A stretch of 64,000 bases of DNA from an uncultured Desulfobacterales bacterium. GTDB taxonomy: Bacteria; Desulfobacterota; Desulfobacteria; Desulfobacterales; Desulfobacteraceae. The stretch is taken from contig CAYZHB010000001.1 of NCBI GenBank assembly GCA_964478245.1, positions 43,249 through 107,248 on the forward strand. Reading direction: 5' to 3'. The stretch's first letter is position 1. Every line of letters begins with the position of its first letter. Shown piece by piece: positions 8,956 through 15,743 of the stretch. The notes beneath the pieces were generated by a model that had not been told where the DNA came from, did not search any database, and was given only the letters and a program-made list of their open reading frames with translations. Made by a program: the position numbers and the translations under genes.

Positions 8956-9570
8956 TTACCGGGTATCCTCCGGCGTGGGCAATTTCAGCGGCGACATGAA
9001 AGTGACTTCTTTGAAAAGGGCGGCATCGTTTGCCAGAATAAATTGTCGAACGCCTGCGGTATCCTCGGTGACATACACAGGCGAATGCTTCTTTTGATCA
9101 TCGGTTTTTCCTTTGAGACCTCCTTTCCTGACCGCCTGCTCGACGGGCGCCGCGTCCATGAGGGATACGCCGAGGCGGCCGCCCAGCATCTGATATTTCA
9201 CCAACAGGTAACCGCGCGTTTCATTTTTTTCCGGTTCAAGCGGTGTGAGATTCAGATAGGTGCTGCCGCCGAATGCGGTGGTATGACCTTTAAAACCGGA
9301 ATGTTTCATCTGGTGTGAACCGCTGAATTCAATCATCAGAAGGGTGAACCGGTCTGATTTCCCCTTTTTCCCGATGTGAACCAAACCGGATTCGTCTTCA
9401 TCCTGCCAGTACCAGGAACCGAAAACATCCGGATCGAGTACCTGCTCGCCGGTTGAGCTCAGCGGGTTTTCAAAATACGCGATACAGCCGGTCAGAGAAA
9501 ACAGGCACACGCACACCAGCAGAATACAGCCATTTTTGACGGCCCGTTTCCATTTGTTGCAGGTTTTCAT
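8956..9570 (-). CDS. Hypothetical lipoprotein
   Basis: Signal peptide ending in the lipobox LTGC (LLVCVCLFSLTGC). No recognisable domain. Confidence 0.55.
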   Translation of the reverse strand: MKTCNKWKRAVKNGCILLVCVCLFSLTGCIAYFENPLSSTGEQVLDPDVFGSWYWQDEDESGLVHIGKKGKSDRFTLLMIEFSGSHQMKHSGFKGHTTAFGGSTYLNLTPLEPEKNETRGYLLVKYQMLGGRLGVSLMDAAPVEQAVRKGGLKGKTDDQKKHSPVYVTEDTAGVRQFILANDAALFKEVTFMSPLKLPTPEDTR

Positions 9571-10993: not shown

Positions 10994-11055
10994 TGTTTTT
11001 TGTTCGAGATTACGGGTTGTGAGGTTCATGAAAGATTCCCGGGTGTGCCTGAAAC

Positions 11056-11071
11056 TGGTATGTTTTTTGCT
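11056..11071 (+). promoter_or_regulatory. Sigma-54 (-24/-12) type promoter
   Basis: TGGTATGTTTTTTGCT compared with consensus TGGCACG-N4-TTGCW. The GG and GC dinucleotides have the correct spacing. It lies 125 nt upstream of the ATG at 11196. Confidence 0.55.
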
Positions 11072-11195
11072 CTCGTGAACGCTGTGAACAGATAGTGCCG
11101 GCATGGCGGAGGTCGGCCGCAATTCTGCCGTTTCACCGGTATCATGTATAACCGGTTTTATTGATGGATATCGATTTTTTACGTAAGGAGGTCTC

Positions 11196-12083
11196 ATGTC
11201 AGTCTTGTTACGCAATGGTTTGCTGGTATTCCTTTTGACGATGGTTTTTCTCCTCTTTTCGGCACCGGCTGTCTTTGCCTGCGGCGGCGGCGGCGGCGGT
11301 GGAGGCGGCGGCGGAGGGGGTGATAAATTTGATGATGATCAGGTTTCCGAGAGCAATTCACCGCCTCCCGGTTTTTCTGAAACGGGTTTTGATGTGGGTT
11401 CGGACGCGAGCTATGCAGAGGGGGAAACCTCGGATGCAGATGAACTCACCGACCAATTTCTGGAGGAATTCGGGCTGGGCGGGGAAATCGGCTTGCCTGA
11501 TCCGTCAACAGGTTCAGTCGGTTCTTCTGAGACCACCGGTTCTGTGGAGAGCTCAGTTGAAGAGGAGATTACACAGCATGCGCTGGAACAGGAGGAAAAA
11601 GAGGAGGCCCAAACGCAGCAAGCCGCAGCCGACGAGGAAAGAGAGCAGGAAAGGCTGGAGCGGTACAACAATTATATCAGCAAGCTGCCTGAGAAGGCGC
11701 GGCACGGTTTAACGCGCCGGGAACTCATGGGATATGCCCAGATAAATGAATGGAGAGAAAAGGGCGTGCCCGAGTCTGTTATCCGGCAGGAACTGGACAG
11801 GCTCACCGAACAGATTGCCCAGAGGAGAAAAAAATCAAAGGAGCGGTTCGAACGGGCCCATGAAGATGCCAACTGGATCGCGAAACAGATGGTAAGTATG
11901 CAAATACATTTCCTGACCGGTGGTTCCTTTTTTGCCGGTTTGGCTTTCAATGTCGCAACAGAAGGGGAAAAGGGCGCCGCAAATTCAATTGCAACACAGG
12001 CGGTCACCTCCCGGCTTCCGGGCGGAAATGCCGCCACAAGAGCGGCTGTAAGTCAGGTTGTCTCGAATGTGGTGAACGAATAG
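11196..12083 (+). CDS. Exported/lipo-protein with Cys29-(Gly)13 mature N-terminus, acidic low-complexity and coiled-coil regions
   Basis: MSVLLRNGLLVFLLTMVFLLFSAPAVFAC-GGGGGGGGGGGGG-DKFDDD... AGGAGG lies upstream of the ATG. It is paralogous at the N-terminus to 12890..13420. Confidence 0.65.
   Translation: MSVLLRNGLLVFLLTMVFLLFSAPAVFACGGGGGGGGGGGGGDKFDDDQVSESNSPPPGFSETGFDVGSDASYAEGETSDADELTDQFLEEFGLGGEIGLPDPSTGSVGSSETTGSVESSVEEEITQHALEQEEKEEAQTQQAAADEEREQERLERYNNYISKLPEKARHGLTRRELMGYAQINEWREKGVPESVIRQELDRLTEQIAQRRKKSKERFERAHEDANWIAKQMVSMQIHFLTGGSFFAGLAFNVATEGEKGAANSIATQAVTSRLPGGNAATRAAVSQVVSNVVNE
11283..11321 (+). repeat. (GGN)13 trinucleotide tract encoding poly-Gly
   Basis: ggc ggc ggc ggc ggc ggt gga ggc ggc ggc gga ggg ggt, in frame immediately after the TGC (Cys29) codon. 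Confidence 0.9.
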
Positions 12084-12294
12084 ATTAAAGGATGGGCCGG
12101 TGAGGCATAAAAGCCTCTTCGGCAATACCTCCTTTTCGGATGACAGCCCTCCGGGTTGTAAGGAAACTTTATCGTACATATCAAGGATAACAAAGATGGC
12201 TGCTAACTCTCAGAATATATGGTTAGAAAGTCCAAGAATCGTTATCCCGCATACCCCGGTTACCCCGCGCTATCCCGCAAGAAAATAGTATAAT

Positions 12295-12750
12295 TTGTAC
12301 CCCGCTTATCCCGCCCCTCATTATGTGTTACCGGCATTAAGGGATAAACCCGAAGATATCAGGGAACTTGCCGAATATTTTGTTCAAACCTACTGTCGGG
12401 CGTTTAACAAACCGGTCTTGAACATCACCCGGGAAGTTCTGAATGTGTTAAAACATTATGCCTGGCCGGGGAATGTAAGAGAGTTGAAAAACGTTATGGA
12501 AAATATCGTTATCACCTGTGATCAATCCCATATTGCCGTGGAGAATTTACCCGAGACAATATATGGCGAGGATAAACCGCTGGATCTGCAGGAAACGGAA
12601 ACCCGGAACCTTGACATGGCAGCACATGAACGCAGCCTGCTTCTGGCCGCTTTGAAAAAAAGCGGCTGGAACCAGTCCAAGGCCGCCAGAGAACTCTGTA
12701 TTACCCGAAGCGCCCTTGGCTACCGCCTTCAAAAATACGGTATTAAATAA
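12295..12750 (+). pseudogene. Truncated sigma-54-dependent (NtrC/Fis-family) transcriptional activator: only the end of the AAA+ domain plus the Fis-type HTH
   Basis: VLPALRDKPEDIRELAEYF...WPGNVRELKNVMEN...and C-terminal NQSKAARELCITRSALGYRLQKYGI. There are no Walker A/B, GAFTGA or receiver/sensor parts. The ORF opens with a TTG inside non-coding-looking repeats. Confidence 0.7.
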
Positions 12751-12889
12751 TTGTTTTTTCCTTCGACCGCCTTGAAACCGGATCAGCACTTGGGAACAAA
12801 CAATGATTTACAAACTTGACATAATCATTTCTGCGCCATAAGATGTATTGACTTTTTAATGCAACGCTTCTAGAAAGGAGAAGAGTGTC

Positions 12890-13420
12890 ATGTCAAGACT
12901 TATTCGCAAATCCGTGTTGGTTTCTGCTTTGATTTTAGCGGTCATGCTGTATGTGACACCGGCTGCATTCGCCTGCGGCGGCGGCGGTGGCGGTGGCGGT
13001 GGTGGCGGAGATTCAAAAAGTGAGGACGATTCCGCCGTATCGGTCAGTATCGGCGGGGCCCCTTCTGATATCGATCCCGGTGCCTCGGGCACAAGTTCAT
13101 CCCCTTCTCAAGGCGATCCGTCCGCCAGCCCGGACACGGTCCATATCGCCGGGTGGCAGGTTGACAGGGCCGATATTGACGCCCAGATGGAAGAAGAGAA
13201 AATGACGGAAAACATCCAGAGCCTGATCAATTTCATGGATGAAAATTCCGGGGCGGATGCGGTTGATAAGGAGATACAGGAACTGGCTTTGCAGACCATC
13301 ACAGCGACTTATTTGCACGTTCGGTTAACCCGCCCGGACGCAACCCACCAGGAGGCCATGCTGGCGGCTGTAACAATCTGCAACTTCAGGGCTTCTTTTA
13401 TAAACGACAACTCTTATTAA
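12890..13420 (+). CDS. Exported/lipo-protein with Cys29-(Gly)11 mature N-terminus (paralog of 11196..12083)
   Basis: MSRLIRKSVLVSALILAVMLYVTPAAFAC-GGGGGGGGGGG-DSKSEDD... AAGGAG lies upstream of the ATG. A possible sigma-70 promoter is TTGACA (12816-12821), 17 nt, TAAGAT (12839-12844). Confidence 0.6.
   Translation: MSRLIRKSVLVSALILAVMLYVTPAAFACGGGGGGGGGGGDSKSEDDSAVSVSIGGAPSDIDPGASGTSSSPSQGDPSASPDTVHIAGWQVDRADIDAQMEEEKMTENIQSLINFMDENSGADAVDKEIQELALQTITATYLHVRLTRPDATHQEAMLAAVTICNFRASFINDNSY
12977..13009 (+). repeat. (GGN)11 trinucleotide tract encoding poly-Gly
   Basis: ggc ggc ggc ggt ggc ggt ggc ggt ggt ggc gga, directly after the TGC (Cys29) codon. Confidence 0.9.
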
Positions 13421-13485: not shown

Positions 13486-14562
13486 ATGAAAAAAACCGGG
13501 GGCTTTCTTTTGTTCGGGATATGTGTTTTTCTGCTGGGTTCCTGCGTGACACTGGACACCCTGGGGCCGTCTGAAAAAAAGCAGGGGCAAACGGAACCAC
13601 TTGTCAAAGAACTGCCCCTCGTGAATTTTGATGATCTGGACAAGGATGCGGCAAAAGGCCTTGTTGCCATTGAAAAAGCGAAACTCAATGCACTGGATAC
13701 CCACCAGTCTTTTCTTTATACCCGGCGGACACCGGAAAGCCGACTTCTTTTAAACAACAAAACCGACTATTTTCAATTTGAAACCCGCAAGCTGGCTTTT
13801 ACGGAAAACACGGTCAACCCGGACGGCACACGCACACTCGGCGTCGTCTGTTTGTCGGTGGATGCGCTCGGAAGAAGAGATCTGAGTAAAAACCGGATTG
13901 TCTACAAAACAGACAAACTGAACCGGGCGGAAGCCGAGGCGATGGAAGCCTCGTTGTGGCAGGAGGCGAAAAAGGTGAGAAGTCTTACTGACAGACAGTT
14001 GAGCCGGCTGGTGAAAGAGAGTGTAAAGGAGTACCAGACCGCCAACCAGCTGATGGTGGACGGTATCATCGGCAGGCAGACAATAGGTACCATGCTGCAG
14101 CATATTCCTGTCATAGAAATCAGGGAGGTTTCAACCGAGGTGGCGTATCCTGAGAAGCCGGTGTATGACGCCTATATTATAGAGGCATCCGCCATGACAC
14201 CGGCACACTTCAACCGTGGATTTGAAAGCATCGCAGAAGTGAGGAAACACGCCCTCTCCTTTGATGAATTCAGACAAATCGCCGAACCGGGCAAACAGTT
14301 TTATGCCTGTATTTACTTTTTTGATCGGGTCAGCCCATCATACGCCCTTAAATGGGGGATTGCGACCAGTGCCGCCGGCAGGGCGGAAAAGATGAGCCGG
14401 ACATTCTATGCCAGGCCCCACGCCTGGCCCATGGTTATTGAATCGTTTACAACCGAATCGGAATTCAATAGTTCAGAACTGTATGTCAATCTTTATCGGG
14501 AGACCCAAGGGATGCTGGGCATACCCCTGGCAAAACTGGTTGCCAGCCGGGCGATCCGGTAG
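13486..14562 (+). CDS. Lipoprotein with peptidoglycan-binding (PG_binding_1-like) motif
   Basis: ATG at 13486 after GGAGGGGGG. MKKTGGFLLFGICVFLLGSC lipobox. LMVDGIIGRQTIGTMLQ resembles the PG-binding repeat. Confidence 0.55.
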   Translation: MKKTGGFLLFGICVFLLGSCVTLDTLGPSEKKQGQTEPLVKELPLVNFDDLDKDAAKGLVAIEKAKLNALDTHQSFLYTRRTPESRLLLNNKTDYFQFETRKLAFTENTVNPDGTRTLGVVCLSVDALGRRDLSKNRIVYKTDKLNRAEAEAMEASLWQEAKKVRSLTDRQLSRLVKESVKEYQTANQLMVDGIIGRQTIGTMLQHIPVIEIREVSTEVAYPEKPVYDAYIIEASAMTPAHFNRGFESIAEVRKHALSFDEFRQIAEPGKQFYACIYFFDRVSPSYALKWGIATSAAGRAEKMSRTFYARPHAWPMVIESFTTESEFNSSELYVNLYRETQGMLGIPLAKLVASRAIR

Positions 14563-14675
14563 CAGGTGTTTCGTCTTGTAAAAAATCACCGGCAATTATC
14601 AAAACCGGTTTTATCCGTTTTTCAACTCAAAATATAAATGATGATCATCTGGACGCCGGGCGCGTTTTTGTTTTT

Positions 14676-15743
14676 TCACTCTTTTCTGTTTTGTACAGGC
14701 TCAAGGCAGATACTGAAGTCATCATGATCGGTATCCAGCGGCAGGCCGATAAGACAGAAGGGCGCGACCCCCATGGTCAGCATGTCACACGGCATGCCGA
14801 TAAAGGCGAAATCCGTCTGCAGCATGACGGTTTCCTCTTTAATGATTATCAGGCTTAAAACCGATCGGTTTTCACGGTCGAGGGGGTCGGCTGAAAACCG
14901 GATGCACCAGTTGTGGCCGCCGGTATCGGTAAAACTGCAGCGCCCTTCGGCATAGGTGCCGTCCCGGCTGCAGTAGATGCCGTCCTGCCGTATAAAGGGG
15001 TTTTCATTGTCCATTGTGGCGATCTCGGTCTTGTGGGGAAGCAGGTGCAGCGGAATTTTGCGCTCTTTTCCGGGCCCGTAAATAACCGACAGGCAAAACC
15101 GGTCCGTGATATCCGGCGGGTGAAAGGGGCGGGAGATGGTTACGGGATGCCCTTTCAGGATGACCGTCGCCTTTTCCCCGGAAAACGGTTCAGCCCTGTC
15201 ATAAACAGGGGGAATGACCATTTTCCCTTCCTTGTCGATGTATCCCCAACGGCCGCCTGTTATCCGGGTGTGTTCGCCGTCGGGCACAGGGGCGCAGCCG
15301 TTGCAGACGGCGGCATATCCGCCGGAAAAGGGCAGGGCGAAATCAAACCGTGCTTTCACGGTTTTATTGCCGCTTTTATCCATGAAACCGATTTTTCCGT
15401 TTTCCACGAACCGGGCAAGCCCCTCCCGGAAATAGTCCGGCCCGTTGTCATACAGGTACGGAGTTAACATTTCATTTCCGTTTGTGTCGATGTATTTCCA
15501 GCCGTTTTGATCAGCTGCCGCGGCAATGCCCTGTTCACTGAATTCAAGGGCTGTTATGTACCGGGGCGGCACCACTGTCTCACCTTCTGGTGTGCGGTAA
15601 CCGTAAAGATCGCTGCCGGTATCCTGAAACACCACAGGATGCCCGGAACCGGTAATGCCACAGCCGGAAAAAGCGGGTAAAATCAGAAGAAAAAAGCACA
15701 AACCGATCCGCCTGAAATTACCTGCACAGGAATGGCAATTCAT
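14676..15743 (-). CDS. WG-repeat (KWG-type) lipoprotein
   Basis: Signal peptide with FSGC. Repeated motifs are ...GWKYIDTNGNEMLTP..., GKIGFMDKSGNKTVKARFD..., WGYIDKEGKMVIPPVYD... Confidence 0.65.
   Translation of the reverse strand: MNCHSCAGNFRRIGLCFFLLILPAFSGCGITGSGHPVVFQDTGSDLYGYRTPEGETVVPPRYITALEFSEQGIAAAADQNGWKYIDTNGNEMLTPYLYDNGPDYFREGLARFVENGKIGFMDKSGNKTVKARFDFALPFSGGYAAVCNGCAPVPDGEHTRITGGRWGYIDKEGKMVIPPVYDRAEPFSGEKATVILKGHPVTISRPFHPPDITDRFCLSVIYGPGKERKIPLHLLPHKTEIATMDNENPFIRQDGIYCSRDGTYAEGRCSFTDTGGHNWCIRFSADPLDRENRSVLSLIIIKEETVMLQTDFAFIGMPCDMLTMGVAPFCLIGLPLDTDHDDFSICLEPVQNRKE

Follow-up and report, generated by a model that had tools for sequence, protein, structure and literature searches.

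About one half of Escherichia coli's outer-membrane lipoproteins carry a disordered N-terminal linker, and Lol trafficking is indifferent to the sequence of that linker, an artificial Gly-Ser linker being functional (10.1101/2021.01.05.425367). In its strict form, the lipobox at the end of a lipoprotein signal peptide reads [LVI][ASTVI][GAS]C (quoted in PMC12462473). Here, we describe two genes in a 64-kb window (the whole stretch of 64,000 nucleotides that was analysed, from contig CAYZHB010000001.1 of an uncultured Desulfobacterales bacterium of a microbial mat, numbered from its first letter), each encoding a small protein whose predicted signal peptide ends at a cysteine followed by an unbroken run of glycines. 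This Cys-polyglycine (polyGly) start is a lipoprotein tether of an ordinary kind; it is neither a new signal nor a new module. The element conserved among the relatives of the two proteins is an F-A-x-polyGly junction, i.e. an A-F-A cut site with a glycine linker, and not the cysteine. Judged from their sequences, both are probably small, lipid-anchored envelope proteins on a long flexible tether, and protein 2 probably works with a lipoprotein encoded next to it.

Anatomy and relatives of the two proteins

The initial annotation reported two exported proteins with Cys29, 11-13 glycines and unrelated helical C-terminal parts, and both open reading frames are as it described them:

11196-12083, forward strand: gene 1, 295 aa; signal peptide aa 1-28, Cys29, 13 glycines, acidic disordered linker to about aa 118, helical C-terminal domain
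12890-13420, forward strand: gene 2, 176 aa; signal peptide aa 1-28, Cys29, 11 glycines, acidic linker to about aa 95, helical acidic C-terminal domain

Protein 1 starts with MSVLLRNGLLVFLLTMVFLLFSAPAVFA-C-G13-DKFDDD (c-region ...SAPAVFA-C29) and protein 2 with MSRLIRKSVLVSALILAVMLYVTPAAFA-C-G11-DSKSEDD (c-region ...VTPAAFA-C29), and the genes are preceded by the Shine-Dalgarno sequences AAGGAGG (11185-11191) and AAGGAGA (12875-12881), respectively. These are the only runs of five or more glycines in all six frames of the window. The BLASTP alignment of the two proteins is limited to residues 1-79 (44% identity, E 4e-7), with mutually unrelated C-terminal parts, and their genes are identical at 46 of 54 nucleotides in codons 23-40 and at 34 of 66 in codons 1-22. 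Past the glycines, both proteins have an acidic segment in which Ser, Thr, Gly and Pro are abundant, with 20 Asp and Glu vs. one Lys or Arg in residues 30-120 of protein 1 and 10 vs. two in residues 30-95 of protein 2. A single-sequence AlphaFold2 (AF2) model of protein 1 is all-helical (pLDDT 64.5); residues 23-116 have pLDDT values under 50, long helices lie beyond residue 119, and a Foldseek comparison of this model with the PDB gave no match at E 0.001 or better. Hydropathy windows of 19 residues reach membrane-span grade only at the N-terminus of both proteins, and a membrane hairpin in protein 1 was ruled out, the maximum in its Gly/Ala-rich C-terminal segment being 1.2. Neither protein 1 nor protein 2 nor any of nine relatives scored above the curated cut-off of a Pfam or NCBIfam model, in agreement with the earlier statement that neither protein belongs to a described family.

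Contigs from public microbial-mat metagenomes match both cysteine codons with zero differences (X1 contig, 11000-11422; X2 contig, 12301-12993). A word-index homology search returned no match for protein 1, including protein 1 itself, and only the query for protein 2, and an exact look-up of protein 2 found no contig. Protein 1 is also missing from a collection of 5.8 billion proteins in which protein 2 and its partner lipoprotein (see below), from the same 112-kb contig, are present; gene 1 was apparently not called there.

An exhaustive search of representative proteins identified two distant relatives of protein 1. P0007 (290 aa) aligns with aa 106-294 of protein 1 (E 1.9e-8) and has the junction ...VEAFA-Y-GGGGG-ESQ, and P0009, a 78-aa fragment, has the junction ...IAFA-C-GGGGDGGG- and the same PPPGF motif. 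Following P0009 (L247:268-789), an open reading frame in another frame contains ...ILPGGNAAVV..., which resembles ...RLPGGNAATRAAV... in the C-terminus of protein 1; this may be due to a frameshift in a contig of 2x coverage or to a split gene. The N-termini encoded at loci L345/L360 and L349 resemble that of protein 1 as well and carry PPGF-type motifs, and L345/L360 additionally have a C-terminal ...PGG... segment like protein 1. Three orthologs of protein 2 were reached via its partner gene, namely P0010 (L248; ...SAFA-Y-G5AG4AG; phmmer 4.7e-21 to protein 2), P0011 (L250; ...AVFA-Y-G8AG5AG), and P0013 (L369; ...AAFA-H-G5AG4AG; BLASTP 2e-26 to protein 2). The residue after the predicted cut (+1) in these homologs is a tyrosine in P0007, P0010 and P0011, a histidine in P0013, and a cysteine only in P0009. 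The view that the cysteine is the conserved element of the families had to be given up because homologs carry Tyr or His in its place. Two further candidates were rejected: a restriction of +1 to Cys or Tyr, on account of the histidine in P0013, and the L161 protein (...PAFAC-G11-DDD) as a homolog of the window proteins, as BLASTP detected nothing past the signal peptide.

The Cys-polyGly start had first been taken for an unrecognised N-terminal module, but pattern scans revealed that lipoprotein signal peptides ending in this way are widespread. Among the 120 loci listed for the pattern A-C-G8 in viral contigs, about 28 have textbook lipoprotein signal peptides with L-x-A-C followed by 8-14 glycines. 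For F-A-C-G7+ in contigs representing one genome per species, a lipoprotein-type signal peptide was found in 62 of the 118 loci listed, i.e. in at least 62, and the totals of both scans are lower bounds (at least 120 and at least 118 loci). The sources of the F-A-C-polyGly sequences include SAR86, Halieaceae, Planctomycetota, Acidobacteriota, Nitrospirota, Bdellovibrionota, Myxococcota, Dormibacterota, Desulfobacterota, and others. The glycine runs of the 62 listed lipoproteins comprise 7-17 residues, and position -3 is occupied by Leu in 34 and by Ala in 10 of them, the latter as in the VAFAC-G8 solute-binding proteins of Dormibacterota metagenome-assembled genomes (MAGs). A literature search yielded no paper linking polyglycine to lipoprotein processing.

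A peptidoglycan-binding partner and its recurring loci

Gene 2 is followed by a lipoprotein gene, and a hairpin lies at the end of the putative operon formed by the two:

13486-14562, forward strand: partner gene, 65 nt downstream of gene 2, encoding a 358-aa lipoprotein (signal ...FLLGSC)
14651..14667, forward strand: terminator-like hairpin, then a T run

The partner has a central PG_binding_1 domain (23.7 bits vs. a cut-off of 23). In its AF2 model (pLDDT 77.9), two beta-sandwich-like domains flank this helical peptidoglycan (PG)-binding domain, and comparison with the PDB gave no significant fold match, with immunoglobulin-like chance matches only and no enzyme fold. Four homologs of the partner (P0003-P0006) share 41-50% identity with it, and the contigs of all four have a protein 2 ortholog directly upstream. 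In total, the partner family adjoins polyGly genes in at least seven other loci (L248, L249, L250, L292, L321, L358, L368, L369) and lies directly downstream of the polyGly gene in L248, L250, L369, L292, L321, and L358. From this arrangement, gene 2 and the partner gene are probably co-transcribed, and protein 2 probably acts with the peptidoglycan-binding lipoprotein.

Several of these loci were recovered by a metagenome scan for the motif [AV]-F-A-Y-G5, which identified 117 loci, in 37 of which a signal peptide ends exactly at the motif. A lipoprotein of the partner family is encoded immediately downstream in L292, L321, and L358/L348 (phmmer 1e-35 to 1e-50, profile 1e-55 to 1e-68), and the polyGly proteins of these loci have no detectable similarity to protein 2 beyond the N-terminus. 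A metagenome scan with the partner alignment returned 497 pattern matches, none of which was confirmed. Many of the A-F-A-Y-G5 matches outside signal peptides fall in a conserved internal motif ..AGAFAYGGGGGSGKAQWQD.. of ~160-aa proteins (L253, L262, L265, L279, L293, L301, others), which look Hcp-like, and others in ..VGYAFAYGGGGGWF.. of membrane proteins similar to ammonium transporters; in both cases, the match to the polyGly junction is due to chance.

A second version of the gene pair is found in L161 from a Desulfobacteraceae MAG (with Cys) and in L332 (with Tyr), where the lipoprotein has 420-436 aa and a C-terminal PG_binding_1 domain. The L161 partner has only this domain and a short motif, recognised by eye, in common with the window partner, and the hidden Markov model of the partner family misses it. 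The third recurring neighbour is a protein of ~550 aa that has PD40 repeats and a CxxCH motif, which is of the haem-binding type. It is not encoded in the window and occurs in other loci as follows:

L292:7145-8800: CxxCH/PD40 protein after the partner
L321:3031-4752: CxxCH/PD40 protein after the partner
L368:1435-2247: CxxCH/PD40 protein after the partner
L246:1115-1564: CxxCH/PD40 fragment before the polyGly gene
L332:1368-1658: CxxCH/PD40 fragment before the polyGly gene

In two loci, the PG-binding partner is followed by a gene for an STT3/PglB-type oligosaccharyltransferase (L248:5506-7743, L369:2705-3196); inspection by eye of the polyGly proteins of L248 and L369 revealed no obvious bacterial D/E-x-N-x-S/T sequon.

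Processing of the junction and role of the glycines

Both proteins would be exported by the Sec pathway and their signal peptides cut at A28|C29 by either signal peptidase I or signal peptidase II. In the signal peptides, an n-region containing Arg or Lys leads into a hydrophobic core of 14 residues, after which comes a c-region of the form P-x(2-5)-[AV]-F-A. The initial annotation considered the A-x-A/Cys junction compatible with either enzyme, and this ambiguity is genuine and now underpinned by comparison. On the one hand, SAP-AVFA|C and VTP-AAFA|C have the A/V-x-A and the helix breaker in the c-region that characterise signal peptidase I sites. On the other hand, the lipoprotein rule of the PROSITE PS51257 type requires a basic n-region, an uncharged hydrophobic core, and a cysteine in the first 35 residues. 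As a regular expression (K/R in the first seven residues, six uncharged residues before the box, Cys within position 35), it matches proteins 1 and 2, the partner, and two neighbouring lipoproteins.

We lean towards lipidation of both window proteins, because they match this relaxed rule and because A-F-A-C precedes typical lipoprotein families elsewhere. The cysteine at +1 would turn the A-F-A cut site into a relaxed lipobox ([AV]-F-A-C); Lgt would attach a diacylglyceryl group, signal peptidase II would cut, and the lipidated cysteine would hold the protein on the membrane. The 11-13 glycines together with the 55-80-residue acidic Ser/Thr/Pro-rich segment could then form a long disordered tether on which the helical domain reaches into the periplasm. 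Several observations weigh against this proposal. Both proteins deviate from the strict lipobox, protein 1 (V-F-A-C) by Phe at -2 and protein 2 (A-F-A-C) by Phe at -2 and Ala at -3. Their c-regions combine Pro at -5/-6 with A-x-A, as signal peptidase I substrates typically do, and a proline at -8 to -4 is present in only 11 of the 62 listed generic F-A-C-polyGly lipoproteins. Furthermore, the cysteine varies among homologs.

The same observations speak for an alternative that we regard as possible but less likely, in which both proteins are ordinary signal peptidase I substrates that are soluble in the periplasm and have a free Cys-polyGly N-terminus, with an unlipidated cysteine that may form a disulfide. 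It would agree with the Tyr and His at +1 of the orthologs, neither of which can be lipidated, and with a c-region of the P-x(2-5)-[AV]-F-A type, with Pro 4-8 residues before the cut, in nearly all 17 module sequences, as well as with the departure from the strict lipobox. However, relaxed boxes are tolerated by Lgt, which works ahead of cleavage, and, besides the match to the PS51257-type rule and the lipoprotein families with A-F-A-C, there are five independent Cys versions that all have an Asp directly after the glycine run (5/5). This Asp is found in none of nine independent Tyr groups and in 4 of the 62 listed generic lipoproteins, and its presence in all five Cys versions suggests that the Cys state is under selection rather than neutral. 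Members with Tyr or His must be plain signal peptidase I products; therefore, anchoring is likely to be optional and lineage-specific within these families, with the Gly-rich linker as the conserved part.

The run itself had been interpreted as either a flexible tether or an oligoglycine nucleophile. The tether stands as the most reasonable role, whereas the nucleophile is unsupported because it would need a free N-terminal glycine, and Cys, Tyr or His precedes the run in all members. We also considered that P-x(2-5)-[AV]-F-A|[C/Y/H]-polyGly marks several small exported families which, with the PG_binding_1 lipoprotein and often the CxxCH/PD40 protein, would constitute an undescribed envelope module of uncultured sulfate-reducer-like bacteria. 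In such a module, the partner system could bind, trim or cross-link the glycine tail as a specific handle, and Cys vs. Tyr/His would switch between anchored and free forms; this broader scheme is improbable on present evidence.

Quite improbable is a dedicated recognition function of F-A-x-polyGly, in which the glycine tail would bind to the beta-sandwich domains of the partner, be a substrate of a Gly-Gly endopeptidase, become attached to peptidoglycan, or form a polyglycine-II bundle between subunits. Such a function would fit the fact that F, A, and the glycines are the sole invariant columns aligning otherwise very divergent proteins, that a DNA search with the motif alone recovered loci with the partner family, and that a PG-binding partner always adjoins. 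Yet a search by motif favours members that have it, +1 varies between Cys, Tyr and His, the loci contain no visible peptidase, transpeptidase or sortase-like gene, and no enzyme-like fold matches the partner model. Polyglycine-II assemblies involve several glycine runs per chain, but each protein has a single run, which shows no order in the AF2 model, and the N-terminal residue of the chain is not a glycine.

At the DNA level, the glycine tracts are the following:

11280..11321, forward strand: Cys29 codon and 13 Gly codons of gene 1 (Gly part 11283-11321)
12977-13009, forward strand: Gly tract of gene 2, 11 codons, read from the sequence

The codons are (GGC)5 GGT GGA (GGC)3 GGA GGG GGT in gene 1 and (GGC)3 GGT GGC GGT GGC GGT GGT GGC GGA in gene 2, and a mixture of GGC, GGT, GGA, and GGG is present in all tracts of 17 family members. 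The longest pure codon run is (GGC)5 in gene 1, (GGC)3 in gene 2, and 2-3 codons in the relatives, so that both genes lack the long perfect repeat by which contingency loci are recognised. The mixed codons indicate selection on glycine and not on a DNA repeat. Tract length differs among close orthologs (G5 in L292, G7 in L273, G6 in L283), and an indel separates the tracts of L345 and L360. Within populations, tract length was assessed in assembled Logan contigs at 4-5x depth only, in which no indel was seen; tract 1 is intact in the one X1 contig that reads through it, and the remaining contigs end at the tracts. An F-A-Y-polyGly start was also observed in a marine NHL-like family of ~340-380-aa exported proteins (...[TPS][VA]FA-Y-Gn-SG..SPS(G/A)YNPYGL...), whose close orthologs have runs of G5 to G13 (metagenome contigs L252, L256, L276, L284, L285, L287, L312, L320, L337, L364). 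The early proposal that the GGC tracts are contingency repeats, whose in-frame slippage varies linker length within a population and tunes the proteins, is very unlikely: it would account for the length differences between close orthologs, including the marine NHL-like family, and for assemblies breaking at the tracts, but the codons are mixed throughout, the contigs have zero indels, and the breaks are explained by k-mers common to GGC repeats of other organisms (depth 70-200 there).

Genomic setting and relation to known systems

The DNA around the two genes contains the following additional features:

11056..11071, forward strand: candidate sigma-54-type promoter-like site TGGTATGTTTTTTGCT, 140 nt upstream of the gene 1 start (pattern match)
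12295..12750, forward strand: sigma-54 activator remnant between gene 1 and gene 2, with AAA lid and Fis-type helix-turn-helix only
12816..12844, forward strand: sigma-70-type promoter-like site TTGACA-17-TAAGAT before gene 2 (consensus match only, 10/12)

The TGG-N9-TGC[AT] pattern of the first site occurs before gene 1 only among 17 upstream regions of family members, which rules out sigma-54 control as a family trait. The activator remnant (AAA_lid_14, 4.2e-25; HTH_8, 5.8e-13) has no ATPase core and is separate from the polyGly proteins. Just before it, a stretch of TTAYCCCGC-like repeats (12200-12330) has a word depth of 22-26x in three metagenome runs vs. 4-5x on either side; it looks multi-copy and may be where a mobile or repeated element ends. 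The lipoprotein-rich setting noted in the initial annotation is real, as the neighbours at 8956-9570 (reverse strand), 13486-14562 (forward strand), and 14676-15743 (reverse strand) fit the PROSITE-type lipoprotein pattern. The last of these is convergent to the partner gene, and its product is a lipoprotein (..PAFSGC) in which four beta repeats containing WG were recognised (PF14903, 8.4e-33).

Glycine linkers after a signal-peptide cut are common in bacteria and thus of an already known type. New are the small unnamed exported families with a conserved F-A-x-polyGly start, usually encoded beside an uncharacterised peptidoglycan-binding lipoprotein, with the CxxCH/PD40 protein as a frequent third member. 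The families and their gene neighbourhood are undescribed and of modest interest. As close relatives differ at the one residue that decides whether a lipid anchor is possible (Cys yes, Tyr/His no), they offer a natural test case for a single-residue shift between anchored and soluble envelope proteins and for the limit of lipobox tolerance.

Among known systems, periplasmic proteins of the ZraP/CpxP/Spy type are similar in that an A-F-A cut site and an aromatic residue or His precede the glycines. ZraP itself (...SAFA|HGGHG) is a signal peptidase I substrate with a Gly-rich mature start, and one of the motif-containing sequences, L297, reads ...TAFAY-G5-HGRHHG. Some relatives match Metal_resist/CpxP models weakly at the N-terminus and far below the cut-offs (L332, E 0.02; L292, E 0.007), but the mature domains of the window proteins have no similarity to that family. 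A neighbourhood that combines a PG-binding lipoprotein with a small helical exported protein and, in L292, L321, and L368, with a PD40 protein is reminiscent of Tol-Pal-type clusters with the PD40 propeller of TolB, the PG-binding lipoprotein Pal, and the coiled-coil protein CpoB. Unlike those clusters, the proteins described here have no sequence relation to TolB, Pal or CpoB, the lipoprotein has a PG_binding_1 and not an OmpA-like domain, and the PD40 protein, which is not encoded in the window, has a CxxCH motif.

Close parallels are tethered lipoproteins such as RcsF, NlpD, and Pal of E. coli and the surface lipoproteins of Neisseria and Borrelia, in which a small residue and Cys end the signal peptide and a long, sequence-tolerant disordered linker follows (10.1101/2021.01.05.425367). 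A cysteine directly followed by 7-17 glycines occurs in lipoproteins of many phyla. The window proteins differ from them in their relaxed lipobox (Phe at -2, Ala/Val at -3), their signal peptidase I-like c-region, and the alternation of Cys with Tyr or His. Finally, in chloroplast Toc75, a polyGly run adjoins the cut by a type I signal peptidase in an envelope precursor; whereas that run is part of the removed presequence and acts in sorting (PMC4195282, PMC3210150), the run in the window proteins would stay on the mature protein.

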